IMG/VR virus record: IMGVR_UViG_3300031746_000001
DNA length: 64,000 nt
Reading direction: 5' to 3' (one strand)
From: a virus
Under the pieces are notes generated by a model. It was not told the DNA's origin, did no database searches, and saw only the letters and a list, made by a program, of their open reading frames with translations. Shown piece after piece: positions 7,821 to 62,302 of this stretch (position 1 is the first letter of the stretch; each line of letters starts with the position of its first letter). The position numbers and the translations under genes are program-made.

Positions 7821-7862
7821 CTATTGGGCCTTCGTCGTCTTCTGCATGAACTGGAACACGAC
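7821..7862 (-). pseudogene. Displaced original 3' end of the tail sheath gene (VVFQFMQKTTKAQ*)
   Basis: GTC GTG TTC CAG TTC ATG CAG AAG ACG ACG AAG GCC CAA TAG encodes exactly the last 13 aa of the sheath ORF. Confidence 0.93.
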
Positions 7863-12576: not shown

Positions 12577-12888
12577 CTACCACTGATCGGTGATATCGGT
12601 AAGGGCGACGATCATAACGCTGGCTCTCCGGACGGCGTCCCGGAAGTTATTCGCTATCCGGGTTACCCGCTTGACATCCACAAGGCCCCGGCCTTTCACC
12701 TGTTCGTTGTAGAGATCATTGGCGAGCTTCTTGATCTCGTCCGTGATCTTCACGAGCTTCGAGACATTCTCTGCAATCTCGGCCTGTAGCTCTTCGGGAT
12801 CCCTGCTCCGGAGCCCCGCTTCCCCGGGAGAGACGGCAGACTTCAAGGTCTCCTCTGTCAATGCGACCGACTTAAGCAGGTCGTTCAT
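12577..12888 (-). CDS. Small protein with cargo-type leader (MNDLLKSVALTEETLKS|AV)
   Basis: Start reassigned to ATG 12888 (SD GAGGTG); leader similar to array members. Confidence 0.65.
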   Translation of the reverse strand: MNDLLKSVALTEETLKSAVSPGEAGLRSRDPEELQAEIAENVSKLVKITDEIKKLANDLYNEQVKGRGLVDVKRVTRIANNFRDAVRRASVMIVALTDITDQW

Positions 12889-13205
12889 TTGGTCACCTCG
12901 TTGAAAATGTCCATGAGGCCCTTCACCTGCCCGGCAAGGGTGATCCCGGACTTCATGCCCTTCCGGTGAAGCCGAGACTCCTTCTCCTTGCGGGACCTCG
13001 AGCGCATGGTGAGGCCGAGGTCGGACTTCACGACCCTCCGGGTAGCCCTGCGGGCGTCCCTGCTGAACGGGGACACAACCCTTCCTGACTGCACCGCGAC
13101 CTTCCGGTAAGGGACCCGCTTCCACTGCTTGAGATGGGTCTTCTCTCCGGAGACGACCGCAGACGTCAACGCCTGCACTCCACTCAACAAGACTTTCATG
13201 CTCAT
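12885..13205 (-). CDS. Small Arg/Lys-rich protein with cargo-type leader (MKVLLSGVQALTS|AV)
   Basis: Highly basic; overlapping start/stop with neighbours. Confidence 0.6.
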   Translation of the reverse strand: MSMKVLLSGVQALTSAVVSGEKTHLKQWKRVPYRKVAVQSGRVVSPFSRDARRATRRVVKSDLGLTMRSRSRKEKESRLHRKGMKSGITLAGQVKGLMDIFNEVTK

Positions 13206-16568: not shown

Positions 16569-16886
16569 CTAAACCCTTTCTATCACGTCGGGAAGAATGT
16601 CTTTCACGGCATCGGCAATCGCCTGGATGTCGGATCGTGGAATCTTCTCCGCGACCCGATCCCCGATCCGTCTCGACTTTCCACGGAGCTCGTCCACGCC
16701 CTCGAGATGATAGCCGATCCCCGAGGCGATCCATATCTTCACGGAGTCGGGAGAGGCGAGCCACCGCAAGATAGAGTTAATATCCACGGCACTCTGGACC
16801 GGATTCTCCTTCACGGGATACCCCAGAAACCTTGCCCCTCCGACCATCTGATCGATCGAAGTTACTGCCAAGAGAAGTTCATTCAT
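16569..16886 (-). CDS. Leader-array protein (MNELLLAVTSIDQMVGGAR)
   Basis: SD AGGAGG; shared leader. Confidence 0.7.
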   Translation of the reverse strand: MNELLLAVTSIDQMVGGARFLGYPVKENPVQSAVDINSILRWLASPDSVKIWIASGIGYHLEGVDELRGKSRRIGDRVAEKIPRSDIQAIADAVKDILPDVIERV

Positions 16887-16894
16887 AAGTCCTC

Positions 16895-17170
16895 CTATGC
16901 CGTCATTGAGGCCCGAACAAGGTCCAGAAGCAGGGACTGGTTATTCGCCAGATCATGGAGCTTCTGCCGAGTCCCTTCCAGGTACTGCACGTCTATAAGT
17001 GCTACCAACCGATGGGATAATTTCACGCTCACCTTCTGATCAACCCCGGCGAACCTGAGATCGTTGGAAATGCCTCCCGAAAGCATCCCCACGATGTTGT
17101 GAAAGTCTATTCCCCGAAGGTAGTGCTCGACCTTCTGAACAACCCTTGCTTCCTCCGGTGTCATGTCCAT
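16895..17170 (-). CDS. Hypothetical protein within the array (no clear leader)
   Basis: Co-oriented ORF with SD. Confidence 0.6.
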   Translation of the reverse strand: MDMTPEEARVVQKVEHYLRGIDFHNIVGMLSGGISNDLRFAGVDQKVSVKLSHRLVALIDVQYLEGTRQKLHDLANNQSLLLDLVRASMTA

Positions 17171-17179
17171 AGCACCCTC

Positions 17180-17587
17180 TCATTGGGATTTGCTCCGAAA
17201 CAGCTTCTTGATCTGAGCGTCGGTGTAGTGCTTGACCTTATACATCGCGAGGTCATCGAGGGCCCCGTTGATCGAATGGTAGTTCTCGTTCTCGAGGATC
17301 TCCCACACCCGCTCCGAAAGGGAGCTAGGCTTAACCCCGAGCCTCCTAACGGCAACCTCTACGTTCTCCTTATAACCGTCCCAGTCCCCCCAGGGCCCCG
17401 AGGCGTCGTCCCAACCCTTGCTCCGCCAGATGTCCTCGTCGATCTTCATGAGCTCGGTCGCCAGCTTCTTGTCCCGCTGTGGCGTATCCTTCAGCCGGGC
17501 GTAAAACGGAGACTCCCCGAGGTCGTCCGTTGTGCGGACGCTTAGGAGCCCAGCAAGGGACCGAATCGCTTCAAGCAGGGTTCTCAT
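17180..17587 (-). CDS. Leader-array protein (MRTLLEAIRSLAGLLS|VR)
   Basis: Shared leader. Confidence 0.7.
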   Translation of the reverse strand: MRTLLEAIRSLAGLLSVRTTDDLGESPFYARLKDTPQRDKKLATELMKIDEDIWRSKGWDDASGPWGDWDGYKENVEVAVRRLGVKPSSLSERVWEILENENYHSINGALDDLAMYKVKHYTDAQIKKLFRSKSQ

Positions 17588-17590
17588 GGT

Positions 17591-18031
17591 CTACATGAAG
17601 AACTTCGTGAACTCGGGATCCTCGAGGGCGTTCGTATAGGCTCCCTCTTCCTCCGAGATCCGGCGAACTTCCTTCGGGTTGATCGCCTGCTTCTTGATGA
17701 TCTGGATGGCCTGCTCTTTGGTCATGTTCTCGTCTTCCAGCATGTCACCGATGTGCCTGGCATCTCTGAAGTCCCCGTAGAGGACGATCGCCAGGTCAGA
17801 GTAACCCTTCTGCCGGAGGGCTTCGATCCACGCATCGGCGAGCTCTGGGTTCGTGGCGAGGGCCGAGTGACCCCAGAAGCCGAACCCTCCCGAGATGTAA
17901 CGGCCAGCCCGCAGGAACTCCTTCGTGGAGAGCTTGTTCTTGATGTCCCAGATCGACCTCTCCCGAGCGTCAAAGAGCTCCTCCCCGCACATCGAAGCCA
18001 GAAGCTGAACGGCTCGAGTTTCCTTTTTCAT
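17591..18031 (-). CDS. Leader-array protein, CGE subtype (AVQLLASMCGE)
   Basis: Shares AVxxLxx(L/M)CGE with the genes at 19814 and 20692. Confidence 0.7.
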   Translation of the reverse strand: MKKETRAVQLLASMCGEELFDARERSIWDIKNKLSTKEFLRAGRYISGGFGFWGHSALATNPELADAWIEALRQKGYSDLAIVLYGDFRDARHIGDMLEDENMTKEQAIQIIKKQAINPKEVRRISEEEGAYTNALEDPEFTKFFM

Positions 18032-18032
18032 G

Positions 18033-19178
18033 TCAGTCCTCCTTGTGGTGCGGTTTGTCGCCCCGGCTTTTCATCCAGTAGGAGTTATGCGAGAAAACCC
18101 CTGCGGATATGGCGAACGTATGAATTCCCTTAACAGCGACATCATACATCGGAATGATGGTATCGAGAAAATCGATCTTAACTATAAAGTGGTTCTGAGC
18201 CTCTCGAGCTTCCCGGGCCCTTCGCTTTCCTTCGCCGACCTTTTTCCCATGATCCGAACCATAGTTTCTCCGAAGATTTGCCTGCCTAATCTTCTCTATC
18301 GCATCCGCAGACTGAGAAGTTCCGAACGGACGACCGCCAAGCAAACCACTCCTGTAAGACTGATCCCTGAGAAGTCCCGACCGACGTTCTCGCTCTTCGG
18401 GAGACATTTCGGCCCATTGCTTCAACGTAGTCTCTTTGGACTTTTTCGTATGCAACCTTCTGAATTCCGGGTCCGATCTCCACTTTTTATCCCACGCTAA
18501 CCGCATCGCCTGAACCTTGTCCTTTCCATGATGCTTATTATGGAAATCCCGCAACATCCAAACTAAGTTTTCAGGGCGGTTATCTCGAGGGTCTTCATTG
18601 AGATGGTGCCCGACATGCTCGGCGGAGGGACAGCCTAAACCCATCTCCCGCATTACAGCCCAATGCGTAAGGCCATAGCACCCGAGGCCGGGATGGTAAA
18701 CCATCTCATGCCCCACAATTCCACGAGCCATTCTTGATTTTGACACACTGCTTGTCGTCCTGAATGGCATCAGAGAATCATCTACGTTCAGAGCCTTCGT
18801 TTCGACGAAAGACCCATCACGTTTGACCCAGCGGTGCTCCGGAGAACAGGTTAGAATCTCACCGTTATCAAGCGCAATTTCCACGGCAGGACGCACCCCG
18901 ACATACTTTACCCGGGCAAGACCGGGAACGACTATCCCTGTCGGGTCAACGGAGTAAAGCCAGAACTCGGCATTAGCCTCTGCAAGTGCATGCAGTGACC
19001 TGATTTTTCCGTCCAAACATGGAACCTCCGTATCACCTCCTAGACACAAAGCGAAGGGGTTGTCGATGTCCTTGTGCTTCTTCATCGCCCGGACGGTCCC
19101 GCCCCAGCCCGGGGGAGACACGTTCACGAGCTTGAAGCTCTGCGAGAGATCGACGACGGCGGTCAATAATTCCTTCAT
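18033..19178 (-). CDS. Leader-array microprotein (60 aa after splicing) interrupted by an intein
   Basis: N-extein MKELLTAVVDLSQSFKLVNVSPPGWGGTVRAMKKHKDIDNPFAL (44 aa); C-extein SYWMKSRGDKPHHKED (16 aa). Confidence 0.85.
   Translation of the reverse strand: MKELLTAVVDLSQSFKLVNVSPPGWGGTVRAMKKHKDIDNPFALCLGGDTEVPCLDGKIRSLHALAEANAEFWLYSVDPTGIVVPGLARVKYVGVRPAVEIALDNGEILTCSPEHRWVKRDGSFVETKALNVDDSLMPFRTTSSVSKSRMARGIVGHEMVYHPGLGCYGLTHWAVMREMGLGCPSAEHVGHHLNEDPRDNRPENLVWMLRDFHNKHHGKDKVQAMRLAWDKKWRSDPEFRRLHTKKSKETTLKQWAEMSPEERERRSGLLRDQSYRSGLLGGRPFGTSQSADAIEKIRQANLRRNYGSDHGKKVGEGKRRAREAREAQNHFIVKIDFLDTIIPMYDVAVKGIHTFAISAGVFSHNSYWMKSRGDKPHHKED
18084..19046 (-). mobile_element. Intein (321 aa) with HNH homing endonuclease and NUMOD3-like repeats
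   Basis: Block A CLGGDT, block B CSPEHRW, block F MYDVAVKGIHTF, block G VFSHN|S; HNH motif HHLNEDPRDNRPENL...HNKHH. Confidence 0.93.
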
Positions 19179-19187
19179 GATATCCTC

Positions 19188-19817
19188 CTACGCGGCCTTC
19201 AGCCCAACCTGCCGGGCGTATTCTTTCCAGGTATCCCCGTCCACCAGAATGTCGGCCACATCGTTGTTGGCAATCATGTCCCCGTACTCGTCCTGCAGGG
19301 TCCCGAGCATCTCTTCCACGATCCCCTGGATGAACTCCGTCAGGTCGGCCCCGCCGAGGAACGGAGGGACGCAGGAGTAGCCCCGGGTCGAGAAGGCGAT
19401 GCTCACAGGAGAACGACGATCGTTCAGTGCTTTCTGGACCTCTGGATCGTTCGGGTCTGCCCCGGCCTCCTTGAGAAAGAGCCTGACGTCCTTGACCACT
19501 GCGTTCTTGAGCACGAGGCGCTCGGGCCTGAAGTAGTAGTCCGGGCTGTCTCCCTCGGGATCCTTCCAGCTCATCTTCGGGCTCACCCAGAGGACATCCT
19601 CACATTGGATCCCGTAATCCGACAGGCGGCTCCGGAAGTGCGCCTTCAGGTTGCGATCGAAGTCCCCGTAGACCCGATCTCTGCGGAAGAGCTCCATCAT
19701 CATGAACTGCGTGGACAGCTCGAGGTCCTGAAAATCCTTCTCCCGGTTGGGATCGAGATAGAGCCCCAGGAAGATCCCGCTGGTTAAGGTATTCACAGCT
19801 TCGAGCAAGTCCCTCAC
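19188..19817 (-). CDS. Leader-array protein (MRDLLEAVNTLTS|GI)
   Basis: Shared leader. Confidence 0.7.
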   Translation of the reverse strand: MRDLLEAVNTLTSGIFLGLYLDPNREKDFQDLELSTQFMMMELFRRDRVYGDFDRNLKAHFRSRLSDYGIQCEDVLWVSPKMSWKDPEGDSPDYYFRPERLVLKNAVVKDVRLFLKEAGADPNDPEVQKALNDRRSPVSIAFSTRGYSCVPPFLGGADLTEFIQGIVEEMLGTLQDEYGDMIANNDVADILVDGDTWKEYARQVGLKAA

Positions 19818-20185
19818 GGCTCCCTTAAGCCAAAGGGGTCTTCCTCTGCGAGATCACGGACGACCTCCTGCAATTTATCCGTAATCAATCCCATGCCCTT
19901 CTGGATGTCGGAATTGTCCCGCAGGTACTGAAAGAGCACGTCCACGACCTGTGCAACGACTTTGGAATCTCCGGAATGCCCGACCGCATCCTTGATGAAC
20001 TTCAGCACGTACTCGGACAGCTTCTCGGGGTCGCCCAAGACTCCCCCGTTCGCCACCTGAAGGGCAGTCTTCTGAAGGACAGCGGGATCCACGCCTTTGT
20101 AGCCCAAGACCCTGGTCCCTGTGGACAAGATCGGTTCCCCGCACAACTCGGCAAGGATTAAAACGGCTTTATTCTCTTGGCTCAT
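19814..20185 (-). CDS. Leader-array protein, CGE subtype (AVLILAELCGE)
   Basis: Start reassigned to MSQENK at 20185. Confidence 0.65.
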   Translation of the reverse strand: MSQENKAVLILAELCGEPILSTGTRVLGYKGVDPAVLQKTALQVANGGVLGDPEKLSEYVLKFIKDAVGHSGDSKVVAQVVDVLFQYLRDNSDIQKGMGLITDKLQEVVRDLAEEDPFGLREP

Positions 20186-20186
20186 G

Positions 20187-20684
20187 CTATCCTTTCTCGC
20201 CCACGGCGGTGTAGATCGCCTCGTAGACCGCATCCGCATCGTCCCGGTCTTTGGCGGCATATTCAAAAGCCCCGACGATGATATTATAGGCCTTCGATCC
20301 ATCCGAAAGGGTCTCCTCCACATACTGCAGGTTCGGCTTGCCCCGATCGTCCATCAGGGTCTTCATGAGAACCTTCGTGTTCCTAAGACCACTCTCCAAC
20401 GGCTTCCCCTCCCGAGAGCTCCCCATCGGCCAACCCCTCCTCTCGAGGATCTGTGCAATCTCGGAAGTGACATCTCGGCCCTTCAGAGCCTTCTGCCGGA
20501 GCCGAACAAAGTCCCAGGCTATCTCATTGGAGACCTTCCCTTCTTTCTTGAAATGGTCTGCCATCTCGGAATCCGAGGACGCCTCATCGTTGACCAGGAT
20601 GGCGGCGACCCAATTTACTAAATCGTCCGAGGGCTTCACCGCGGCCTCGAGCTCCTGCAGGGCTTTGATTACTTGGCTTCTCAT
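20187..20684 (-). CDS. Leader-array protein (MRSQVIKALQELEAAV)
   Basis: Start reassigned; amphipathic leader. Confidence 0.65.
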   Translation of the reverse strand: MRSQVIKALQELEAAVKPSDDLVNWVAAILVNDEASSDSEMADHFKKEGKVSNEIAWDFVRLRQKALKGRDVTSEIAQILERRGWPMGSSREGKPLESGLRNTKVLMKTLMDDRGKPNLQYVEETLSDGSKAYNIIVGAFEYAAKDRDDADAVYEAIYTAVGEKG

Positions 20685-20691
20685 GGTCATC

Positions 20692-21042
20692 CTAAGCCCA
20701 GTCCCGGTTCTCGAGGTTCTCCTGTGACTTCTTCGCTTCGAAATACATCTCGCTAGCGGCACCAGCGGCCGTGCGGAGAGACTGCACGACCTTCTTGATC
20801 TCCTGGGTATACTTGGGATCGAACTGCTTGATGGCATACTCCACGTTCCCGGCCAGCTCGTTCAGGAACTGCTCGGCGGCTTTCCCCCACCTCATCGTCT
20901 CCTTGAGCTTATCCATGTCATCGTCTGACATGAAAATCGCATCGGGGTCGCGGGCGGCCATCAGCCTATCCCCGATCTCCGTCCCGTCGTCCTCCCCACA
21001 TAGGACACCCAGCCAGTCCACCGCTTGCTTGAGATTGTCCAT
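20692..21042 (-). CDS. Leader-array protein, CGE subtype (MDNLKQAVDWLGVLCGE)
   Basis: Start reassigned to 21042. Confidence 0.65.
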   Translation of the reverse strand: MDNLKQAVDWLGVLCGEDDGTEIGDRLMAARDPDAIFMSDDDMDKLKETMRWGKAAEQFLNELAGNVEYAIKQFDPKYTQEIKKVVQSLRTAAGAASEMYFEAKKSQENLENRDWA

Positions 21043-21995
21043 CACTTCTTCCCCCATTCTCTTGCGAGAGCATGCCACACTTCATCGACGGCATCCTGGA
21101 TGGACCGAAGGGCGTTGCCGAGCTCCCCGGAAGCCGACGTCCTTCCCCCCATCGTCTCTTCGAATGCGTCTCCGGCTATCCGGGCCAAATCCTTCGGGTT
21201 ACTCTTGTTGATCATCCGGGCCTTCTCATCGATCTCCGGCCACACCTTCTCCTTGATCACAGAGAGGATATCCTGCCGGAGATCGCCGGGCTTAACGGCC
21301 CCCGTCATCAGCCCGGCGAGGGTGTAGAGCTCTTCCTTGTGGGTAGCCGTCGGGTCCTCCCCGGCGTTGGTAAGCTTCTCGGCCATGACCCGGCCCCGCT
21401 TGTCGTAGCCCCAGATCTTCAGGTAGTTCCGGGCCGAGTCCGCCAGCTCTTTGTAATCCTTCCCCTGATCGCTGTTCACCCCGTAGATGTCGACCTGCTT
21501 CTCGAGGGCGTAGATAAAGGCATACATCTTCTCCGGCTTCCCGATCTTCGTGATGCGGGTCCTGAGAGCTGGGATGCTCATGGTTTCGATCCGCATGAAC
21601 TCGTGGTCGACCTCCCGGTAGGATGGGCTCTCGAGATCGCCGGTGGGACCCACCTTCGAGTAGATACCTTCGACCCCGGCGGCCCTCATCCCCCCGTGCT
21701 TCCTCGAGTAGGTGATGAAGTCGGTGTCAATGGCCTCGTTCCCGTGATCGCTCACCATCCAGACGCTCGGCCAGAACTTGTTCTTATTCATCCAGCCCAG
21801 GATTTCCTTGTAGAACTTGTCCCAGTCATCCCCGTCTAAGGTAGCGATTTCCTTCTGACTCTGATAGGCCGCAGTTCCGCCACCCCGCTCGTCCTGGATG
21901 AAGACATCTTCCTCGTCGGGCTCCAAGTCGTCCTCAAACCTCGAGAGGACGAGAACCTTGCGGAGCGAATCTAAGGATTCCAAAAGGGTATTCAT
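21042..21995 (-). CDS. Leader-array multi-segment protein (MNTLLESLDSLRKVLVLSR)
   Basis: SD AGGAGG before ATG 21995; internal LTN|AG and RTS|AS motifs. Confidence 0.72.
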   Translation of the reverse strand: MNTLLESLDSLRKVLVLSRFEDDLEPDEEDVFIQDERGGGTAAYQSQKEIATLDGDDWDKFYKEILGWMNKNKFWPSVWMVSDHGNEAIDTDFITYSRKHGGMRAAGVEGIYSKVGPTGDLESPSYREVDHEFMRIETMSIPALRTRITKIGKPEKMYAFIYALEKQVDIYGVNSDQGKDYKELADSARNYLKIWGYDKRGRVMAEKLTNAGEDPTATHKEELYTLAGLMTGAVKPGDLRQDILSVIKEKVWPEIDEKARMINKSNPKDLARIAGDAFEETMGGRTSASGELGNALRSIQDAVDEVWHALAREWGKK

Positions 21996-22002
21996 GATCC
22001 TC

Positions 22003-22356
22003 CTATCGGGATAACGCCTTTTTCTGGTAATACTCGGCCTTCTTCGAGAACTGATTCCACATGGCCTCCATGTTCCGCCCGAGGCTTTCGATATCCGCCA
22101 AGACCTTCTTTGCCAGGGGATCGTTGTCCCACGCCCACCACAGGATTCCCGCAACCTCCGGAGCGGCGTCTCCCCCGATATCTTTGAAGAGTATCTCGCT
22201 GAAGTAGCCCTCCATCATCCAATCCTTGAACCGACGAGCCTCCTCAGTAAAGGTTGCCAGCTCCCTCTGGATCTCCGGGATGGAATGATCGTCACCCCGG
22301 GCGGAGACCACCAGACCACGATCGATGCCCTGTGTAGCTTCCAGAAGGGCTCTCAC
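22003..22356 (-). CDS. Leader-array protein (VRALLEATQGIDRGLVVS|ARG)
   Basis: GTG start overlapping the upstream TGA. Confidence 0.7.
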   Translation of the reverse strand: MRALLEATQGIDRGLVVSARGDDHSIPEIQRELATFTEEARRFKDWMMEGYFSEILFKDIGGDAAPEVAGILWWAWDNDPLAKKVLADIESLGRNMEAMWNQFSKKAEYYQKKALSR

Positions 22357-22616
22357 ACCTTCCTCCCCAAGTCCCCGTTGATCTGACCGATCAGCCTCGA
22401 CGTGATCCGGGTGTGCTTGTCCTCGTCGGCGAAGTTCTCGATCATGTCGCCGTAGGGATCGATCTTCTCGAGTTGGTTGAGAAGCTTGTCGATCTGGACG
22501 AGGAGGTCCCTGCACTTCTCGGCCCGGGCGGCGAAGTCTCCCCGCAACGTATCCGTTGACCGGGCGGAGACCAGTCCCGTCTCGACGGCCTGCATAGCTT
22601 CTAGTAAGGTTCTCAT
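22353..22616 (-). CDS. Leader-array protein (MRTLLEAMQAVETGLVS|ARS)
   Basis: Shared leader, very similar to that of the neighbouring gene. Confidence 0.72.
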   Translation of the reverse strand: MRTLLEAMQAVETGLVSARSTDTLRGDFAARAEKCRDLLVQIDKLLNQLEKIDPYGDMIENFADEDKHTRITSRLIGQINGDLGRKV

Positions 22617-22930
22617 CTGAGGCTCCTTTCGATTGACCGCAGAGACGTCACCAGATCGTTCATCGGCCCGCTTTCCGAGCTCTTAACGTAGGTGTCGACA
22701 TCCACACCCCCGCACTTCGGGCACCCGTCATTCGCCGCCCGCTCGGCAGAAGCTGTCGTGTAGAACTTCTTCCCGCACTCCTGGCACATGAACAAGGGCT
22801 CTCCGGCAGACTGGACGACCTGCTTGGTCTGGACCGGAACCACTGCGGCAGACACCGGATCGTGGGCGGCTATTCCAGGGAACAGAATTTGCTCCAACCG
22901 TCCAAAGGCTTCTTTGAATTCCTTGTCCAT
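22613..22930 (-). CDS. Leader-array Zn-ribbon protein (CQECG...CPKCG)
   Basis: VQS|AG precedes the Zn ribbon; ends with leader-like MNDLVTSLRSIERSLR. Confidence 0.7.
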   Translation of the reverse strand: MDKEFKEAFGRLEQILFPGIAAHDPVSAAVVPVQTKQVVQSAGEPLFMCQECGKKFYTTASAERAANDGCPKCGGVDVDTYVKSSESGPMNDLVTSLRSIERSLR

Positions 22931-23808
22931 CAGCCCTCCCTCGGCTTGATAATCCCGCCCGCTTCTTCGAACATCTTTCTCGGGTTCTTGGCGATCTGCT
23001 TGGCGTCCTCCAATTCGCCCTTAAGAAACTCCTTGATCCTGCGGAGCTGTCCGTTCTCCCCTCCCGTCTGACGGTTCAGGATATGGTAGAACACGTCGAC
23101 CAAACCCGACCATCCGATATCACCCTTCGATGGGGGCATCAGCTCATCGGCAATCTTTCCTACGGCATCGTCGTAGGCATCCTTGATGGCATCGACCATA
23201 TCCGGATCGGTTAAGGCTTTGGCGTAGCCCTCAGCGTAGTTCCCGAGAGCCTTCACCTCATCGTCGGAGTCCAGCCAGATATCGCCCCGGGCCGAGTTCA
23301 GCCTCCGACCACGCATGATCCGGGAGTCCTCCAAGTCATCATCGTCCTGCTCTTCGATCCCCTCCACAAACCGCAGGAAGTCCCTCTTGATCCGGTCGCG
23401 GTTCTTGTCGTCGATGATATACTTCTCTTTGCGGAGGTTCTCGGCAATGAATTCAAGTTGCCATGAATCCCTGCCAACCGTCTTGTGGGCGAAGTATTTC
23501 TCCTGATCGGGGATCGTGATCTTATACCGTTCCCACATCTCATCATCCCCAAGTTCATGCTCGAGATAGACGTAGCTGTTGGGACCCGTGATATCCTCCG
23601 GAACGACCCCGCCCGTGGAGACCGTAAGAGTATCCCCCTTCTTGACCCATTGATTCTCATCATACATCACCACGAAGGTGATGCCCCCGAACTGGTCGTA
23701 GAAGGAATGCGTCCACCTCCGGGCGGTGTCATCGTCTACGCCACCACGTGCAGACTGCAGGCCCACCTGGGAGGCTACGTCCTTGACCGCTTGAAGCAGG
23801 TTATTCAT
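22930..23808 (-). CDS. Leader-array two-segment protein (MNNLLQAVKDVASQVGLQS|ARG ... LNS|ARG)
   Basis: Leader plus an internal repeat of the SARG motif. Confidence 0.75.
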   Translation of the reverse strand: MNNLLQAVKDVASQVGLQSARGGVDDDTARRWTHSFYDQFGGITFVVMYDENQWVKKGDTLTVSTGGVVPEDITGPNSYVYLEHELGDDEMWERYKITIPDQEKYFAHKTVGRDSWQLEFIAENLRKEKYIIDDKNRDRIKRDFLRFVEGIEEQDDDDLEDSRIMRGRRLNSARGDIWLDSDDEVKALGNYAEGYAKALTDPDMVDAIKDAYDDAVGKIADELMPPSKGDIGWSGLVDVFYHILNRQTGGENGQLRRIKEFLKGELEDAKQIAKNPRKMFEEAGGIIKPREG

Positions 23809-23809
23809 C

Positions 23810-24043
23810 TCAATTCACCCCCGCGATTTTGGTAACGAACTTGGCGATCCGGTCGAGTTCTTCGACGTTCCTCTCAAGCTCCCTTTTTATGCTACTATCC
23901 TTCTTGAAATGGTCCTGAAGGCCAATGAGCCCGCCCGCCGCCGCTTCGGTATTGTCAAAGGCGTCCTGCGCCTTTCTTAAAAAATCAGCGTCCTCGTCCA
24001 TCTTGGACTGCAGGGCTTCAACCGCAGACAGAAGGTTTCTCAT
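23810..24043 (-). CDS. Leader-array protein (MRNLLSAVEALQS)
   Basis: Shared leader. Confidence 0.7.
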   Translation of the reverse strand: MRNLLSAVEALQSKMDEDADFLRKAQDAFDNTEAAAGGLIGLQDHFKKDSSIKRELERNVEELDRIAKFVTKIAGVN

Positions 24044-24426
24044 CCCTTCCTCCTTTCGATGTCTTTCATGATCGACTCGGCCCGATCCGAGAACTCCTTC
24101 GCATGGTTAGCGAAGCCTGCGGCCTCGTCCTTGAGCTGGGCGATCAGGATAAGCTCATCGTCCGAGGCCTTCCGGGCTACGTTCGCCCCGCCGATGTAGC
24201 CGGACGTATTTCCCCGGAGAGCTTCGACATCATAATGCCTTTCCGGTTTTGCGAACGTGAAGGACGAGGTAAGACGCCCTGACCGGACGGCGTCCTTCTT
24301 CTCATTGTCCCGCTTCTCCATCCGCTTTCGGGTCTCGTCGTCGGGCACGTCCTTCGTCGGGGAGGCGGGGGACATCGGCGCTAGGGAAGGCATGGCGGCA
24401 TTGACCAACCGAATAAGTTCTTTCAT
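24040..24426 (-). CDS. Leader-array protein (MKELIRLVN|AA)
   Basis: Shared leader. Confidence 0.68.
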   Translation of the reverse strand: MKELIRLVNAAMPSLAPMSPASPTKDVPDDETRKRMEKRDNEKKDAVRSGRLTSSFTFAKPERHYDVEALRGNTSGYIGGANVARKASDDELILIAQLKDEAAGFANHAKEFSDRAESIMKDIERRKG

Positions 24427-24659
24427 GTCAAATCTCCATATCTGGATGTGAATTGAAACTCCCCAGTCTTCCCGAGCTCCTGAAACATCTCGAGAATTTC
24501 CTCAAGCTCGCTCTTGGAATCTACTCTCGACGGGACCCGGGAGGCATTCGGATATCCGGCGACCTTCCGATCCTGCTCATCCTCCGAACGCTTCACGGTG
24601 CGGGCTTGGAACCGGAGCTCAGGTCCAACCTGTGCGATCAGTCGAAGCAGTTCGTTCAC
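24423..24659 (-). CDS. Leader-array protein (MNELLRLIAQVGPELRFQAR)
   Basis: Shared leader. Confidence 0.65.
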   Translation of the reverse strand: MNELLRLIAQVGPELRFQARTVKRSEDEQDRKVAGYPNASRVPSRVDSKSELEEILEMFQELGKTGEFQFTSRYGDLT

Positions 24660-24660
24660 C

Positions 24661-25002
24661 CTATAACCTCAACGTCAAAGAAAAGATATCTCGGGATGCC
24701 TTCTTGAACCTCTCGGGATCGATTAGCTGTCCCATCTCAGCAAGGGCATCCAAAGCCTGTCCGGTCTGGGAAAGTATGTCCTTAATGCTCTCAAGCATAT
24801 CCGCTCCGGCCATCTCGCGCCTCTTAGGGTTTGGATCAGAGGCCTTCTTGACGGCTTCCAAAACATGATCAGCGAAGTGAGCTATGAGGTTAGCGCGACC
24901 CCTAAGTTCATCGAGTGCACCTAATGGATAACGATCCTCACGGTTCCATACGGCCATCAAAGAGCCTTCAACCAGAACAAGAGAAGATAGAAGCTCCCTC
25001 AT
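24661..25002 (-). CDS. Leader-array protein (MRELLSSLVLVEGSL)
   Basis: Shared leader. Confidence 0.68.
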   Translation of the reverse strand: MRELLSSLVLVEGSLMAVWNREDRYPLGALDELRGRANLIAHFADHVLEAVKKASDPNPKRREMAGADMLESIKDILSQTGQALDALAEMGQLIDPERFKKASRDIFSLTLRL

Positions 25003-25319
25003 CGGCGTGGCGACACTCCCTGAGTAGTGGACTCCCCGGGCTTGCCTGTTCGCATCATCACATCCCCTCGAGTAAGAAACTCCCCGTTCTTCATGATAAA
25101 CCCGTCGACGAAGCCCGCCTCATCGGGATCCTCCATCAGATCGTAATACCGATCCACCACGCTGGCGGGTAACCGGGCTAACAGCCGAGCATGGGTCTCC
25201 CCCGGCCTGCCCTGGTAGACCCGACCGTCTATCTCGAAGGCCACAGCGTGAACCTGCTTCGCCGGAACCAGATCGACCGCCGAGTAAACCCTCCGTGTGC
25301 ATATGAGGAGACAATTCAA
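24999..25319 (-). CDS. Array protein (VYS|AV; GFIMKNGEFLTR motif)
   Basis: TTG start overlapping the upstream stop. Confidence 0.6.
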   Translation of the reverse strand: MNCLLICTRRVYSAVDLVPAKQVHAVAFEIDGRVYQGRPGETHARLLARLPASVVDRYYDLMEDPDEAGFVDGFIMKNGEFLTRGDVMMRTGKPGESTTQGVSPRR

Positions 25320-25582
25320 TCCAATCCCGCTTGTTTGAGCCTGGTGTAGTAGTCGGGGTGATCTTTGAGATGCGCCAGGGCGATATGCCCCGTGGTCACG
25401 AGATCCCCGCCGGTGACGTCGTAGTGTTCAAGCTCGTCCGCAAGCCCCATCCGGAACTGCTCCGGATCGACGTCGAAGTCCGGGGCGATATCCTCAAGCA
25501 CCTGCTGGGCGATCGCCTGCGATATCTCCTGGTTGATCAGAACCCTTCCTATGCGATTAACGGAGGCCAGAAGCAGGTCCAT
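25316..25582 (-). CDS. Leader-array protein, DUF5661-like
   Basis: FRMGLADELEH...IALAHLKDHPDYYTRLK signature; leader MDLLLASVNRI. Confidence 0.72.
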   Translation of the reverse strand: MDLLLASVNRIGRVLINQEISQAIAQQVLEDIAPDFDVDPEQFRMGLADELEHYDVTGGDLVTTGHIALAHLKDHPDYYTRLKQAGLD

Positions 25583-26010
25583 CAGTCCCACCAGAGGCGG
25601 ATCTCGTTGTTCTCGGCGTTAACCTCGTCGGCCCCGACTTTCCGGGAGTCTTCGATCATCTCGGCAATTTCCTCGAGGGGTCTCTTCCCGCCACGGACGT
25701 AAACGCACGGCGATCCCTCCCGAGCAAGCTGGACCTCGAGCTTGGGTTCGATCCGCTTCAGGGCTCGGATGCTGTTCGGGGTGAACTCGTTGTATGAGTC
25801 GATCCCCGCATGTTCGAACTCCCGAGCGGCGTCATCGATGGAAAGCCATCTCGAGTCGCGCCACTCGTAGACCTCCTTCGTGCGCTTGAGATCGCCCCGC
25901 CCCATCCCGTAGACGTCCTTGAGGCTTGTGGCGCTCGAGAGCCGGACCCTCTTGGGCTCTCCAGCCAGGGACTCAAGGCAGGAGTTAATGACGTTCAAAA
26001 GATAGTCCAT
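25582..26010 (-). CDS. Leader-array protein (MDYLLNVINSCLESL...RLSS|AT)
   Basis: Shared leader; SD AGGAGG. Confidence 0.7.
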   Translation of the reverse strand: MDYLLNVINSCLESLAGEPKRVRLSSATSLKDVYGMGRGDLKRTKEVYEWRDSRWLSIDDAAREFEHAGIDSYNEFTPNSIRALKRIEPKLEVQLAREGSPCVYVRGGKRPLEEIAEMIEDSRKVGADEVNAENNEIRLWWD

Positions 26011-26019
26011 GTGGCCTCC

Positions 26020-26427
26020 TTATAAGGTGACACCCGCCCGCTTCGCCATCGAGACGGGATTCTGTGCGGTAGCCTTGCAAGCCGAGATGAGCCGATCGAG
26101 GACGCCATAGAGTGCGGCCTCCATCCCTCCCTGAGTATGCTCGGCCTGCCAATCGACTATGTTCTCTGTGATCGCCAGGATATCGACATCGTCTCTAAGC
26201 CCGGCCTTCTTCATGGCTCCCTCCCACCGCTCCCCGATCGCCTCCATAAGCATCGTATAGAAGTCGCCCTTCTCGGCTTCTATTTTAGTCGCCATCTCTG
26301 TGGCGAGCTTCGCGACGTTATCCGACATTTCCTGATCGAATCCCGATCCCCGCTGGGACTGCACGGGCGGTCTGGCATTCAGAAAACCCTCGAGCTCCGA
26401 TATCGCATTCATCAGAACCTTACTCAT
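26020..26427 (-). CDS. Leader-array protein (MSKVLMNAISELEGFLN|AR)
   Basis: SD AGGAGG before ATG 26427. Confidence 0.7.
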   Translation of the reverse strand: MSKVLMNAISELEGFLNARPPVQSQRGSGFDQEMSDNVAKLATEMATKIEAEKGDFYTMLMEAIGERWEGAMKKAGLRDDVDILAITENIVDWQAEHTQGGMEAALYGVLDRLISACKATAQNPVSMAKRAGVTL

Positions 26428-26598: not shown

Positions 26599-28044
26599 TT
26601 ACATGTTGAGGACTGTGACGAGGGCGTAGTACTCGGTATAGATGAGCTTCGTGGCATACCGAGTACGGAGACCCTTCTTCAACCCGAAGTCCGTCGGGTC
26701 CATGAACGTCGGGGTCATCTGGATCGGGATATACGGGGCGTAAACGTAGCCCGCATCCATCCAGTAATCCCCCTTCAGGCCCAGCAGAACCTTGGTCGAT
26801 GTGAAGTAGGGGTCTACGTAGACCGCCCACTTGGACTGCAGAGTCCCGGCGAAGTAGATCCCGGGTCTCCGAGGCGGGGTCACTGGGACGCCCGTCTCCG
26901 GGACGGAACCGACCGCTGGCCGGAACAGCTGGTGCGTGGCGAACTGGTCGAACAGGGCCGCCACGTCGGGCGAGGTCACGATCCAGTTCGCGGGCGAACG
27001 GAGCGTCCGCTTGTGGATCGCATTCGACGCCGTCGACAAGACGGTTAGGATCGACCGGATGTGATCGATGTCCGAGATGCCGGACGGCACGGTGCGGTCC
27101 CAGTTATACTTCACGACCGCATCGACGTGGGTGTAGATGTCGTTGATGATCTCGCGGTCGACTTCCAAGCCGATCTGGCTGGAAACCCCGGCCACGAGTT
27201 CCGACTCCACGTCGATTCCGTGCAGGGCCCGCAGGTCTTCTGCGGACTCCGTGGACCAGACGGCCTTGAGCTTGCGGCTCCGCGCCCGAACCTCGGCGAT
27301 CTCCACGGCCACGTCCACTTCCGGGACCGCCGTGTTGAGCTCGCTGTTGTATTCGTAGAACGCGGTGACCACGCCCACCTTCTGCGAGGTCAAAGACGGA
27401 ATGACCATGGCGAAGGCGCCGTTGGTGTAATTGATCGACCCCGAGGCTCCGACTGCGTCACCGACCAGGGTGCCCGACCCGTTGGCGTCGGTGTAGCGGA
27501 TCGTCCGGGGGGACGTCTCGTTGGTCACGACGGTGATGATCGGCCCTGCGGCTCCGGCGTCGGTCGCCTTCTTCACAGGGGTGAAATCCAGCGAAGCGGA
27601 GTAGGTCAGGTCCCCGCCGCCTCCGGCTGGGGTCGTCCCGACTGCCTCGTTGCTGATCGTCTCCGACGAGTAATACATGTCGAAGTTTGCGATCATCTCC
27701 GTGCCCTTCGTGGTGGCGCCCTTCTCGGTCCCGTATTTGACCTTGAAGTAGGACACGGCGCCCACGGGGGCATTCATGGGCTGGACGGACACAATCTCGT
27801 TGGAGATCAGGAACGGCCAGACCCTCCGAACCACCGGGAACACGTGCTTCGTGTAGTAGCCCGCATCTCCGGTCGTCGTGCTCCCGGCGTTAGCCAGGTA
27901 GATCAAGTGGTCCATCTCGTTCTCGAGGAGCCGGGACACGCAGAACTTCCGGTACGGCTCCTTGATCGAGCGAGTGAGACGGTGCCACTTGCTCATCAAA
28001 GCCTGGGCTTCGGGAGTTTTCCAGGCTGTCAGCAACTGTTCCAT
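26599..28044 (-). CDS. Major capsid protein (T4 gp23-like)
   Basis: LLEN, PVVRRV, EIVSVQPM, ARSRKLKAVWS.E..EDL, EVDREII, ANWIVTSP, VYVDPY, AGYVYAPYIP, GLRTRYA. Confidence 0.97.
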   Translation of the reverse strand: MEQLLTAWKTPEAQALMSKWHRLTRSIKEPYRKFCVSRLLENEMDHLIYLANAGSTTTGDAGYYTKHVFPVVRRVWPFLISNEIVSVQPMNAPVGAVSYFKVKYGTEKGATTKGTEMIANFDMYYSSETISNEAVGTTPAGGGGDLTYSASLDFTPVKKATDAGAAGPIITVVTNETSPRTIRYTDANGSGTLVGDAVGASGSINYTNGAFAMVIPSLTSQKVGVVTAFYEYNSELNTAVPEVDVAVEIAEVRARSRKLKAVWSTESAEDLRALHGIDVESELVAGVSSQIGLEVDREIINDIYTHVDAVVKYNWDRTVPSGISDIDHIRSILTVLSTASNAIHKRTLRSPANWIVTSPDVAALFDQFATHQLFRPAVGSVPETGVPVTPPRRPGIYFAGTLQSKWAVYVDPYFTSTKVLLGLKGDYWMDAGYVYAPYIPIQMTPTFMDPTDFGLKKGLRTRYATKLIYTEYYALVTVLNM

Positions 28045-28105: not shown

Positions 28106-29629
28106 TTACTCTTCGCCCGACAATTGGGCGATTCTTTCCATCGACATCCCCGTGAGCTGTTCGATTGCCGTCCCCCGCCCGGTTCCCCGGGATTCGAGAA
28201 CGACGTCCTCGTTCAGCAACGTGGCTCCTCTCCGCATGCCCTGTTGGACACGCTGAAGAAGGGCCCCGGGGGAGTCCGGGGAACGGTCCACCCACTCCCT
28301 TAACTGCACGGCTGTGGAGATGTCGCCGGATTCGACGAGCATCCCCAGTTTGTTTCGAAGGTTGATTACGTCAGACCGATGAGAGATCTGCCTCTCAGCT
28401 TCCAGCATTAACTGCACCCTCTTCGCACGAGCAAGGGCAGACGTGGCGCTTTCCTTCTCGATGGCCACCTGGTTCCTGAGAACATCCACCTCCCCACGAG
28501 TGATCTTCAAGTCCTTCGTCAGCTTGGCCACCTCGGACGTAAGCTCGGCTTCCTTCTCGTCGGCCTCCCCCACGCCCCGCTTGATGACCTCGAGCTGTTC
28601 CTGGGCTTTCGCGATCACGCCTTTGGCCTGCTCCAACTCGGCACTCTTGCCCGTGAGCTCGACCTCCAGCTTTTTCTTGTCATCGGCGGCTCCGGCCTTC
28701 TCCTTCTCGTCCACCTCGTCGGTCTTCTCGATCCCCATCGCTTCGGCGACCTGCTGGGCGGTCTTGGTCAGCTCGTTGATATCAGCGAATCTCCCCAGGT
28801 CACCCAGGGCGGCCATGAGAGCCCCGGCCTTCGGGCTCCGGCCATATTGCTGATTCAGGAAGAGCTTGAATCCCAGGTTCTTATACTCGTCGCGATAGGT
28901 GTTCGCGAGCTTGGTCAGGCGATCGACTTCTGCCTTCAGCGTGGCAACAGCTTTGTCCTTATCCGCTTCCAGCACGACCGCCTCCCCGACAGGCTTGATT
29001 TGAGTCAGCTTAACGCTTGCCGCGACCTCCTCGTGGAGCATCTCTTTCAGCTTGCCCGTAATCTCCTCGACCAGCTTTTTCCGAAGTTCGTCATTTCCCA
29101 TCAACATCTCCTCGTTAAAGATGATCTCTTCTGGCCAGGTAGAATCAGCGGGCTCGGAAACTGCATCAAACGTCAGGAGCCTGAAATCGTCGTTCACGTT
29201 AAATGTGTCACCCTCCTGCGCCAACGACCCGAATCCCCGGCTCGAGATCCCCACCTTCGCACCCGACTTAAGGATGCTCCGGAGGTTGTTCCCTCGCTCG
29301 GTATCCAGGACTTCGGCCTCTCCGATGACCTTCCCGCCGTCACAGCGGAGGTCCGTAATGATGTGGCTGACCTCGTTCAGGCGGGTCCGGCCATCGGCAG
29401 GGTGGTCCAGGCATCCGAAGAGCTTCCGATCTTTCATCAACGGTCTTAGTCTCGAGATCTCACGCTCCCAGAGCGCATGGGGGTACACTCGGTTGTTCTT
29501 GTTCGGATTGTCCGCCAGAGCGAACTCCCCTCGCATGATCACCTTGCGAGCCCCACCGCCAGGCGCATCCTGCTCGACTAACTGCAAGCCTGGGGCGTCG
29601 TAGACTGTGGTTAAGAGTAACTTCTCCAT
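28106..29629 (-). CDS. Prohead maturation protease (T4 gp21-like) fused to a coiled-coil scaffold
   Basis: NKNNRVYP, GCLDHP, VSHII, GISSRGFGS, TFDAVSEP; C-terminal ~330 aa coiled coil. Confidence 0.93.
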   Translation of the reverse strand: MEKLLLTTVYDAPGLQLVEQDAPGGGARKVIMRGEFALADNPNKNNRVYPHALWEREISRLRPLMKDRKLFGCLDHPADGRTRLNEVSHIITDLRCDGGKVIGEAEVLDTERGNNLRSILKSGAKVGISSRGFGSLAQEGDTFNVNDDFRLLTFDAVSEPADSTWPEEIIFNEEMLMGNDELRKKLVEEITGKLKEMLHEEVAASVKLTQIKPVGEAVVLEADKDKAVATLKAEVDRLTKLANTYRDEYKNLGFKLFLNQQYGRSPKAGALMAALGDLGRFADINELTKTAQQVAEAMGIEKTDEVDEKEKAGAADDKKKLEVELTGKSAELEQAKGVIAKAQEQLEVIKRGVGEADEKEAELTSEVAKLTKDLKITRGEVDVLRNQVAIEKESATSALARAKRVQLMLEAERQISHRSDVINLRNKLGMLVESGDISTAVQLREWVDRSPDSPGALLQRVQQGMRRGATLLNEDVVLESRGTGRGTAIEQLTGMSMERIAQLSGEE

Positions 29630-29663: not shown

Positions 29664-30386
29664 TTAGACCGGGATGTCTTCCGGATTGGGCTTCTTCTCG
29701 ACCAGGGTCGGGTTGTCCGGATCGTCGGTGTCGTGGAGCTTCTTGGTCGTCCCTGCGGCCGGTCCCGGGCCGAGCGCCTGGTCGACTTCCTGGGCCACCT
29801 GCAGGAACCGATCCATCACGGCCAGCACGTCCTGGGTCGAGGACTTGATCTCCTCTTCCTCGGGCTTCTGAGCGGCCGCCTGCTTGGTGAGCTCCTTGTC
29901 CGCCGTGTCGAGATCGTCGGCGGCCATCGTCGCGTCCTTCTTGTCGATGACCCCCTCCTCCGACAGGATGCGGAACTTGCTGGACAGGACGCTGATCATC
30001 TTCTTGACGTTGACGATCACGTCTTCGGGCTTGTCCTTCACGGAGGCGCTGGACAGCCGACGTCCGAGGCGCACCCTTGCCGCCTCGAGACGCCACATCG
30101 TCTCGCGCTGTTCGCTGGACCCGAGCTCCAGCCGCTTGGCCGCACGGGCGCAGGCCACACGGCCCGTGCCGCTCGCCAGCCAGGCCTTCCGATCGGCGCT
30201 GTTATTCAACGCCGGGCTCTTCTCGATCTCATCCCGACCTTTCGGGGGATCGTCATGTTCCTCCCCCGGGACCGGTGGATCGACGCCTGGTTCTTCTTGC
30301 CGGTCCTCTGCGACCAGCAATTTTCCCAGCCCGAGGATTTTCAAATCCTCCTCGAGCGTGGAGAGTCGTCCCGTCTTGTAAGGCAT
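29664..30386 (-). CDS. Putative prohead core/scaffold-associated protein
   Basis: Charged low-complexity protein in the head module; contains RRLSS|AS. Confidence 0.55.
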   Translation of the reverse strand: MPYKTGRLSTLEEDLKILGLGKLLVAEDRQEEPGVDPPVPGEEHDDPPKGRDEIEKSPALNNSADRKAWLASGTGRVACARAAKRLELGSSEQRETMWRLEAARVRLGRRLSSASVKDKPEDVIVNVKKMISVLSSKFRILSEEGVIDKKDATMAADDLDTADKELTKQAAAQKPEEEEIKSSTQDVLAVMDRFLQVAQEVDQALGPGPAAGTTKKLHDTDDPDNPTLVEKKPNPEDIPV

Positions 30387-30413: not shown

Positions 30414-31283
30414 TTACTGAAGAAACCGGATGTCGACGGATATCGGTTTCTTGACTAACTTACTGATCAAACGCCCTACCACCTCTGCGGAGTAGAGCCA
30501 ATTAACAAACTCATCGTGAAGTTTGCCAATCGCCTTTGAGGAGACCTGTTGGTTGTCCCCTTCATCATCCAGACCGAGATCACCGAAGCTTTCAATCACC
30601 TCCTCTACGTTATTCAGATAGTCGTGTCCAAACTTAGTTACCGCTTGAATCACAGTGTCCCGCTCCACGCTCATGAACGGCTTGATCGAGTAGTTCTCCT
30701 CGAAGTCCGCCGTCAGCCCGGCCACTCCGTCGTAGAGCTCCTTGAGCCGCTTCACTGCGGAGGACAAGCTCGACCGGATCTGCTTGCCCCACCAGGAAGC
30801 ATAAACCTCCGGGATCCCCTCATCACAGATCGCCTGATACTTCGGACGCAGGCGATTGCTGTCGAGGTCCAGGAGGTCGTCCCGGAGATAGTCGCGAATC
30901 CTCTTCTCGTTGGTCTGAAAATACTGCACCCAGGAAACGTTCTTCTTTAATGAGCTCATGATCTTCCCGACCGACTCGACGTTGTCCTTCACGAGCTTCA
31001 CTTCCTCTCCGAGCTTTTTCTGCGCCTCCGCAAGCGGCTTCACTTCCCCTAGCGTTGGTATGCCGGAGTCGTTCAACAGGATCGTTCCCTCGTAGCACAG
31101 ATCGCCACTCGAGAATACCACTCTCTGAGCGGTCGTGGCCACCAGTGCGGGATCCCGATACCCCGCCTTCTCAATGGCCACCGAGACGTTCTCGAGGAGC
31201 TCTTCGATGGAGCCCTTTCCAACGCTATTCATGAGAGCAGACTGATACTCGTTTGCCGAACCTGTGAACCGTAAGATTTTCAT
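30414..31283 (-). CDS. Hypothetical head-module protein
   Basis: Probable start MKILRF at 31283. Confidence 0.6.
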   Translation of the reverse strand: MKILRFTGSANEYQSALMNSVGKGSIEELLENVSVAIEKAGYRDPALVATTAQRVVFSSGDLCYEGTILLNDSGIPTLGEVKPLAEAQKKLGEEVKLVKDNVESVGKIMSSLKKNVSWVQYFQTNEKRIRDYLRDDLLDLDSNRLRPKYQAICDEGIPEVYASWWGKQIRSSLSSAVKRLKELYDGVAGLTADFEENYSIKPFMSVERDTVIQAVTKFGHDYLNNVEEVIESFGDLGLDDEGDNQQVSSKAIGKLHDEFVNWLYSAEVVGRLISKLVKKPISVDIRFLQ

Positions 31284-33101: not shown

Positions 33102-33476
33102 TTACGCTAAGATAGTCCTCGTTGGAATGTTCTCGTCTGGCTTGAGCAGAACGACGTGCTCTGCCGGACGGGGAGGGATGAACCCGCCCACGACAATCGT
33201 GCAACGGCAGTAGGCGCAGATATACGGGGACCTCTCCCTGGCGTTCAATGGGGCCCCGCAGTTAGGACAACGGAGGGCTTGCAGGGACGTATCGACCGGA
33301 GCCAGGGAAGGAACGCCTGAAACGCCTCGGGGTGGGCTGTCCGGGTCAATACCCGACGTCGGCTGGTAACCTCCGGCTATGGGCTGGTCCCACGATGCCA
33401 CAAGCCTTTTCTGCTCGGATATCCCCCGCTTAACCGTGTCCACCATCTTCAACAGCGCATCGCAGGACTGGCTCAT
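33102..33476 (-). CDS. Zn-ribbon protein (CPNCGA...CAYC)
   Basis: CxxC pairs; start MSQSCD. Confidence 0.6.
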   Translation of the reverse strand: MSQSCDALLKMVDTVKRGISEQKRLVASWDQPIAGGYQPTSGIDPDSPPRGVSGVPSLAPVDTSLQALRCPNCGAPLNARERSPYICAYCRCTIVVGGFIPPRPAEHVVLLKPDENIPTRTILA

Positions 33477-57478: not shown

Positions 57479-57507
57479 ATTATAACGGTTTCCAAAGTAA
57501 TTGTCAA
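57479..57507 (-). promoter_or_regulatory. Perfect sigma70 promoter TTGACA-17-TATAAT
   Basis: -35 at 57502-57507, -10 at 57479-57484. Confidence 0.9.
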
Positions 57508-61787: not shown

Positions 61788-62302
61788 TATACCTCCCCAT
61801 GCACGAGAGGAGGCCCGTGCCAGATGTTCATTCCGTCCCTCCGGAAAATCCCGCACCGCTCGTTGGGAACGACCGTAGCGAAGCAGACCCGAGCCCAGTA
61901 GGGCATAAAGAGGGCTCCATTCGCGTCGATCTTGCAAAGCATGCGGATCCCGGGGAACGCCTTCGGAGCCTCCGGCTTGATATGGGAATAAGCAGACTCC
62001 GGCGTCGGGGCGAAGGGTACTGCGATCGCAAGGGCATGGGCGAGGTCGGTCGTGTCATCCATATTGATCTTGGCCACAAGGTCGCCCTCCTTCACGAAGG
62101 CGTCGTCTACGAACCCAACCTTCTTCATGCTCTCCGGGAGATCACCTCCATCCTCATTCGGAGGGCCCCACTCATCCCCCTCAAGGAAAAAGACCTCCGT
62201 GTCCTTGATCATCTTGGCAAGGTGTTGTAACGCCTCGGGAGGCGTGAATGCTCCGGTTCCATTCGGGACGACAGAGGAAGCTACGATCGCATCGATCTTC
62301 AT
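61787..62302 (-). CDS. Hypothetical protein
   Basis: Coupled co-oriented ORF. Confidence 0.6.
   Translation of the reverse strand: MKIDAIVASSVVPNGTGAFTPPEALQHLAKMIKDTEVFFLEGDEWGPPNEDGGDLPESMKKVGFVDDAFVKEGDLVAKINMDDTTDLAHALAIAVPFAPTPESAYSHIKPEAPKAFPGIRMLCKIDANGALFMPYWARVCFATVVPNERCGIFRRDGMNIWHGPPLVHGEV

Follow-up and report, generated by a model that had tools for sequence, protein, structure and literature searches.

What are the closely packed small genes that follow the major capsid protein (MCP) gene of the uncultured phage recorded as IMGVR_UViG_3300031746_000001, and what do the similar starts of so many of their products signify? The stretch analysed here, referred to below as the window, is 64,000 nucleotides (nt) long and carries almost all of its genes on the minus strand; the source phage is a myophage of ~160 kb from sediment metagenomes, and an identical MCP was found on contigs of up to 159.9 kb. 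An earlier note had proposed that nearly every gene between the MCP and the neck genes encodes a short N-terminal leader, of the kind removed by gp21 in T4, which addresses otherwise unrelated proteins into the capsid for injection. Our analysis, in which the complete genome of a sister phage (L001/G001; 160,139 bp with terminal repeats, ~88% DNA identity across the array region) served for comparison, suggests with a probability of roughly 0.62 that the leader is a prohead-targeting propeptide resembling the capsid-targeting sequence (CTS) of T4, and that the gp21-type protease has had its preference at P1, the residue before the cut, moved or widened to small polar residues.

The interval between the MCP and the neck genes (16569-26427) contains 22 minus-strand genes with intergenic gaps of -4 to +15 nt, and these form one tightly coupled run after the portal, core, scaffold, protease and MCP genes. 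All of the N-termini quoted in the earlier note were located at plausible starts, having either a Shine-Dalgarno sequence or an overlap with the preceding stop codon. When enrichment was checked, the strict leader pattern of that note was present in 9 of the 22 array genes and in none of 92 others (p=8e-8), a looser pattern in 13 (again 0/92 elsewhere; p=1e-11) and a pattern defined by register only in 16, compared with 2 of 85 other genes (p=2e-12). A leave-one-out position weight matrix (PWM), applied at a threshold of at least 5 bits, detected 13/22 array genes and 3/92 others; two of these three were the outlying genes at 12577-12888 and 12885-13205, both already listed as leader genes in the earlier note. 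The description of the leader as present on nearly every gene holds for about 16-19 of the 22 and fails for the rest, among them the gene at 16895, which has no scored leader. Three genes (17591, 19814 and 20692) carry a second leader subtype, ending in [LM]-C-G-E. The accessory open reading frames (ORFs) at 33-52 kb lack the leader, with only two coming near the threshold (33102-33476, immediately upstream of the portal gene, and 40197-40733). The idea that the MCP and the protease start with the leader did not survive: both N-termini scored ~0 bits against the PWM and have in common with the leaders only an L-L-x-small start, a position at which relatives have an L-x-E or L-x-D site.

Residues 2-12 of the leader are amphipathic with helical periodicity, and their hydrophobic moment has a median of 0.52 in the array compared with 0.30 elsewhere (p=2e-6). 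The ratio of nonsynonymous to synonymous substitution (dN/dS) in the leader is 0.21 and the codons at conserved positions vary, indicating that selection acts on the leader peptide; the sequences upstream of the leader genes differ from one another. A matrix trained on the window placed the array genes at the top among the 257 genes of the sister genome; as these matches are orthologues, they speak for array specificity only and not for an independent discovery. The bodies behind the leader proved, in an all-versus-all BLASTP comparison, to be generally unrelated, as had been claimed, except for a weak similarity among 22353, 22003 and 17180 that starts within the leader.

The amphipathic helix is usually followed, at residues 13-32, by the motif hydrophobic-x-(S/N)-small, often continuing as -A-R. 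Within residues 9-40 of the array proteins hydrophobic-x-(S/N)-A occurs 9 times against 1.2 expected (p=6e-6), whereas past residue 40 it occurs at the background rate (5 against 3.5 expected); no enrichment of the Glu motif was seen in residues 9-40. Because the S/N motif was picked by eye, its p-values are optimistic. Comparisons of homologous columns are independent of that choice, and they involve the following genes (aa, amino acids).

31451-33097, minus strand: gp20-type portal
30414-31283, minus strand: second core protein, 289 aa, kept in relatives; 6 hydrophobic-x-S/N vs 3 Glu sites
29664-30386, minus strand: scaffold-like core protein, 240 aa; 6 hydrophobic-x-S/N vs 3 Glu sites
28106-29629, minus strand: gp21-type (S77) prohead protease with a long C-terminal tail
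26599-28044, minus strand: gp23-type major capsid protein; Asn52 codon at 27889-27891

The MCP column ahead of the mature capsid domain reads L-x-E in 119/119 relatives and L-A-N52 in the window. In the scaffold, S/N-type sites outnumber Glu-type sites by 6 to 3, compared with 26 to 211 in 20 relatives pooled (p=2e-4), and the second core protein shifts alike toward S/N sites. Self-activation of T4 gp21 removes nine N-terminal residues (PMC9958956); residue 8 of the window protease is Thr, where 112/112 aligned relatives have Asp or Glu. Thus, the idea of a T4-type leader removed by gp21 stands insofar as a protease-type motif follows the leader, but the Glu rule of T4 does not appear to apply, the presumed site being hydrophobic-x-(S/N). 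The distinctive feature of the system appears, from these alignments, to be a matched loss of Glu in the MCP, the core proteins, the protease N-terminus and the cargo. We therefore predict a cut after Ser or Asn as the probable outcome, although the specificity may have been widened rather than switched, or the remaining Glu residues may be structural.

The protease itself scores above the cut-off for Pfam Peptidase_S77, and its predicted structure has the gp21 fold (predicted local distance difference test score, pLDDT, 88; template modelling score 0.79-0.82 to 5JBL) with an intact His76/Ser130/Asp155 triad and a tail of 330 aa fused C-terminally. The complete sister genome has no S77 gene other than the orthologue of this protease. 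Residues C73, E86, L38, A156 and W165, which are off consensus, were considered as S1 candidates and none was assigned.

The head module of the window is T4-type, with the nearest cultured MCPs only about 31% identical to that of the window; an MCP-based scan of metagenome contigs gave no match. Scans for sigma-70 promoters and terminators returned matches at chance level. Elsewhere in the window, a LAGLIDADG-like homing endonuclease ORF (7862-8653; motif only) directly follows the tail sheath gene, and a cluster of glycosyltransferase-, methyltransferase- and radical S-adenosylmethionine (SAM)-like ORFs (motif only) occupies 57504-62302 (57.5-62 kb); genes of these kinds are far more numerous in the sister at 100-115 kb.

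The array genes and the two outlying leader genes are as follows, with the presumed cleavage site marked by an arrow.

26020-26427, minus strand: gene 1, 135 aa; divergent leader, F-L-N↓A-R (N17); dN/dS 0.11 vs sister
25582-26010, minus strand: gene 2, 142 aa; leader, L-S-S↓A (S26); homologues confined to its own lineage
25316-25582, minus strand: gene 3, 88 aa; leader and DUF5661 domain
24999-25319, minus strand: gene 4, 106 aa, TTG start; weak leader, V-Y-S↓A-V (S13)
24661-25002, minus strand: gene 5, 113 aa; leader; entire cassette missing in sister
24423-24659, minus strand: gene 6, 78 aa; leader; 155 aa in sister (added C-terminal part)
24040-24426, minus strand: gene 7, 128 aa; leader with L-V-N↓A (N9)
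23810-24043, minus strand: gene 8, 77 aa; canonical leader
22930-23808, minus strand: gene 9, 292 aa; leader; L-Q-S↓A-R (S19) and L-N-S↓A-R (S172), probably two payloads within one chain
22613-22930, minus strand: gene 10, 105 aa; divergent helix, V-Q-S↓A-G (S41), then a CxxC..CxxC zinc ribbon
22353-22616, minus strand: gene 11, 87 aa; canonical leader, L-V-S↓A-R (S17)
22003-22356, minus strand: gene 12, 117 aa; leader, V-V-S↓A-R (S18)
21042-21995, minus strand: gene 13, 317 aa; leader
20692-21042, minus strand: gene 14, 116 aa; C-G-E leader subtype; 58% identity to sister
20187-20690, minus strand: gene 15, 165-167 aa; helix in a shifted register; a frameshift divides the gene in sister
19814-20185, minus strand: gene 16, 123 aa; C-G-E leader subtype
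19188-19817, minus strand: gene 17, 209 aa; canonical leader, L-T-S↓G (S13)
18033-19178, minus strand: gene 18, 381 aa; leader, L-V-N↓V-S, basic ~40-aa domain; 60 aa after intein removal
18084-19046, minus strand: intein of 321 aa, carrying an HNH endonuclease, within gene 18; sister lacks it
17591-18031, minus strand: gene 19, 146 aa; C-G-E subtype, L-F-D↓A-R
17180-17587, minus strand: gene 20, 135 aa; canonical leader, L-L-S↓V-R (S16)
16895-17170, minus strand: gene 21, 89-91 aa; start amphipathic, but without a scored leader or site
16569-16886, minus strand: gene 22, 105 aa; canonical leader, V-Q-S↓A-V (S32)
12885-13205, minus strand: outlying leader gene, 106 aa, very basic; L-T-S↓A-V (S15)
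12577-12888, minus strand: outlying leader gene, 103 aa; L-K-S↓A-V (S17)

The last 16 codons of gene 10 (22613-22663) begin with an ATG and encode a leader-like helix at the C-terminus, an arrangement kept in the sister.

Gene 18 allowed the column comparison to be extended to a cargo protein, as its ~40-residue domain is present in 49 loci from diverse phages. Among 32 other distinct sequences, the column eight residues ahead of the G-T-V core of this domain has Glu in 30 and Ala (as K-x-A) in 2; here it has Asn. In two phages the entire protein consists of a leader of 6-7 residues ending in Glu plus the domain, and all three Glu-type genomes that were checked possess S77 and gp23. Taken together, the Glu column and the presence of S77 and gp23 suggest that the head protease releases this domain as a module. 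The K-x-A exceptions (L094 4001-4147 and L138 4001-4102) come from incomplete contigs with no S77 or gp23 match, and perhaps hint at a third cleavage code. A tblastn search of INPHARED with genes 2 and 18 gave no match; a 27-nt match of cyanophage S-P4 to gene 18 was rejected, as it was not the domain. The intein of gene 18 interrupts a protein that is itself just 60 aa long, and its closest matches among the examined loci are portal-module inteins.

Four parts of the payloads could be recognised: a DUF5661 domain in gene 3, the zinc ribbon of gene 10, the basic gene 18 domain and, in gene 13, a segment (residues 26-153) that matches part of a 2343-aa head-module protein of the relative L042 (E=2e-6). 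This protein (L042 900-7931) stands in the position of the core protein, has 33 L-x-E-type sites in addition to the domain shared with gene 13, and is possibly a cargo polyprotein. The ESM Atlas gave no usable match for genes 13 and 17, and a single-sequence AlphaFold prediction of gene 17 was of low confidence (pLDDT 51). Protease-type sites occur at the background rate in the array bodies, whereas the core proteins (29664-30386 and 30414-31283) have them along the chain; with sites only near their N-termini, the array bodies would be expected to outlast maturation, which the scaffold would not.

The plug-and-play character ascribed to the array was supported by comparison of its content with that of the sister, which revealed two gains, one loss, one extension, one split and one or two body exchanges. 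The sister has gained a 120-aa leader gene just upstream of gene 3, and a 94-aa gene upstream of gene 19 whose first 17 residues are as in gene 19 but whose body is different. In gene 12 the leader is 81% identical to that of the sister, the overall identity is only 39% and the DNA is not alignable, reflecting either body exchange or fast divergence. A contig of another study, possibly the sister strain itself, shows the same deletion of 24661-25002 and an allele of gene 18 that has no intein. The 18 genes common to the window and the sister have dN/dS values of 0.05-0.47 and so are real proteins that are mostly retained. Upstream of the portal, the sister (L001 2285-2987) carries two extra leader-like genes with I/L-S-S-R sites, in place of small window genes near 36.1-36.6 kb, and a third strain has genes of 69 and 153 aa at this locus. 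To judge by these alleles, the region upstream of the portal may be a second variable cargo locus.

Leader families were also found among relatives, 80 loci of which were reached by an MCP profile search. Four have families of their own, of 10 (L045), 7 (L039), 4 (L053) and 2 genes (L010), all containing L/I-x-E, and a fifth (L048) has 8 leader genes of a further type; all five families sit near head genes. The leaders of these distant phages mostly end in L-x-E, and such Glu-ending families belong to relatives whose MCPs are likewise of the Glu type. The leader sequence is thus specific to each genome, the usual shared element being I/L-x-E, which is the motif of T4 gp21 (PMC12991175). Most relatives have few or no leader genes directly after the MCP gene, which puts the window array at the large end.

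How does the array compare with known systems? The internal proteins IPI-IPIII of T4 and their CTS offer the closest likeness in the features compared here: small proteins that have no relationship to one another but share a short N-terminal leader, a portal, gp21 protease and gp23 of T4 type, and gene content that varies between relatives (PMC12373910, PMC9958956). Ip1-3 have only the leader in common, and each blocks a different GmrSD (PMC12373910). T4 differs in having three genes at two loci, whereas the window has ~20 in one array within the head operon; its CTS is cut after I/L-x-E instead of the predicted Ser/Asn, and the window payloads are mostly acidic. The T-even CTS consensus had no match in the window or the sister genome. 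The window protease shares with T4 gp21 (MEROPS S77, PDB 5JBL) the fold, the His/Ser/Asp triad and an N-terminal site of the self-cleavage type, but differs in its fused 330-aa tail and in substrates that read hydrophobic-x-(S/N), where those of T4 and the nearest 119 relatives read L-x-E. phiKZ and SPN3US, in which gp175 and gp245 process the ejection proteins and the families of head paralogs, likewise have many head proteins with propeptides, expanded families and shared N-termini on diverged proteins (PMC5694885), although the propeptides are mostly >100 aa, compared with 13-32 aa for the window leaders, and cleavage is after Glu (PMC10052503). Their family members are paralogous, whereas the window bodies are not (all-versus-all BLASTP). 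Herpesvirus assemblin (S21), which has a related fold, cuts at small residues; its P1 is Ala and the third residue His, whereas the window columns indicate a P1 of Ser/Asn in T4 register. A literature search of incomplete coverage turned up neither such arrays in uncultured phages nor a non-Glu specificity in S77. Overall, the array is real and, in principle, well supported as a cargo system like the T4 CTS; by sequence and presumed cut site it lies outside the T4 CTS family.

The reading that we favour can be set out as a sequence of steps. The genes are arranged as one coupled run in the head operon, and their products start with an amphipathic helix usually followed by hydrophobic-x-(S/N)-small. 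The helix would dock each protein onto the scaffolding core during prohead assembly, and the single gp21-type protease would then cut it after Ser or Asn, as it would also cut the MCP (at Asn52) and the core proteins if the swaps at homologous sites are a guide. The bodies, having no internal sites, would persist in the mature head and, by analogy with T4, some might leave the head along with the DNA and go on to act on the host. A gene would be recruited as a new payload by gaining a leader, so that the array would turn over gene by gene. The proposal of capsid cargo made in the earlier note is upheld by the location in a T4-type head operon, the modular turnover, the post-leader motif, the leaders with a gp21 motif in relatives and the gene 18-type domain behind a gp21 motif in ~30 other sequences; what did not seem to carry over was the T4 Glu rule. 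We consider it quite probable that the array proteins enter the prohead as cargo and that the protease then processes them. That they are injected effectors acting on the host, as the T4 comparison might suggest, is a tentative extension to which we give rather less than an even chance.

Several results weigh against this reading. Five leaders contain L-L-E-(A/S), with L-L-E at residues 4-6, and about a third of the array genes have no clear S/N site. In the protease tail, L-x-E is retained at residues 410, 433 and 474, in columns that relatives conserve, and S/N sites are not enriched (rank 120 of 251 relatives), and no S1 residue could be assigned because similar changes occur in relatives with Glu-rich tails. 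The array proteins are mostly acidic (median isoelectric point 5.1), whereas T4 internal proteins are basic, and searches of Pfam, PHROGs and NCBIfam for payload function returned nothing beyond DUF5661, the zinc ribbon and the intein. Finally, most array genes are common to the sister and under purifying selection, making the array less volatile than would be expected of an arms-race locus.

Some of these points would fit a system in which cargo is loaded as proposed but the protease still cuts after Glu, the S/N motif being drift, the site of a second enzyme or a herpesvirus-like cut after Ala. The L-x-E retained in the protease tail and in five leaders is consistent with this, as is the resemblance of many sites, x-(S/N)-A, to the assemblin rule, (V/L)-x-A↓S, in an enzyme whose fold is common to the herpes proteases. 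We nevertheless think it unlikely, if not strongly so, as Asn occupies exactly the Glu column in both the MCP and gene 18, a cut after Ala is impossible in gene 18 because Val follows the Asn, most leaders have no Glu, and the sister genome has a single S77 gene to set against a second enzyme. It is rather improbable, too, that the array proteins are expendable prohead core or filler (like T4 gp67/gp68), structural or DNA-packing, with no effector injected. Their acidity, their lack of enzymatic or anti-defence homologues, the adjacency of the array to the core genes and the conservation of most genes in the sister would all suit such a role; the presumed sites, however, lie only in the first 40 residues, unlike those of both true core proteins, and unrelated, exchangeable bodies are not needed in a structural filler.

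The helix could also dock elsewhere, on the head or neck exterior as decoration or on a phage modifying enzyme, given that the array abuts the neck genes, among which are two leader genes, and that the radical-SAM- and glycosyltransferase-like ORFs (motif only) are encoded at 57.5-62 kb. We regard this as quite improbable: the post-leader motif has changed along with the MCP, scaffold and protease sites, which ties the array proteins to head maturation, and in T4 the gp21 substrates exclude external proteins. Least probable is a shared start that lacks any function as a peptide and was copied as a cassette for translation initiation or recombination. Short DNA repeats do overlap some gene starts and the genes are translationally coupled, but the varied codons, the differing upstream sequences, the leader dN/dS and the helical periodicity largely refute this idea.

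Against these alternatives, a prohead-targeting propeptide cut by a protease of altered P1 preference remains the reading we prefer, and it bears on how cargo enters the heads of T4-type phages. Prohead cargo recognition in these phages has been termed mysterious (PMC9958956); with ~20 natural leaders in one genome, and the families of its relatives, the targeting signal becomes definable by comparison. In the literature searched, the T4-, phiKZ- and SPN3US-type proteases all cut after Glu, and a naturally shifted protease with matched substrates would permit a direct test of P1 determinants and of the co-evolution of protease and capsid. It also bears on CBASS (cyclic oligonucleotide-based antiphage signalling), since defences that sense Glu-specific prohead proteases through CBASS loops have been described (PMC12991175). 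The boldest form of the idea, in which re-tuning from Glu to Ser/Asn has reached every substrate of the protease and may help the phage to evade CBASS-type sensing, while ~20 leader-addressed proteins served by that protease enter the host as new effectors, we hold to be unlikely. If the bodies are indeed injected, the array would represent some 20 protein families with no match to a known function.

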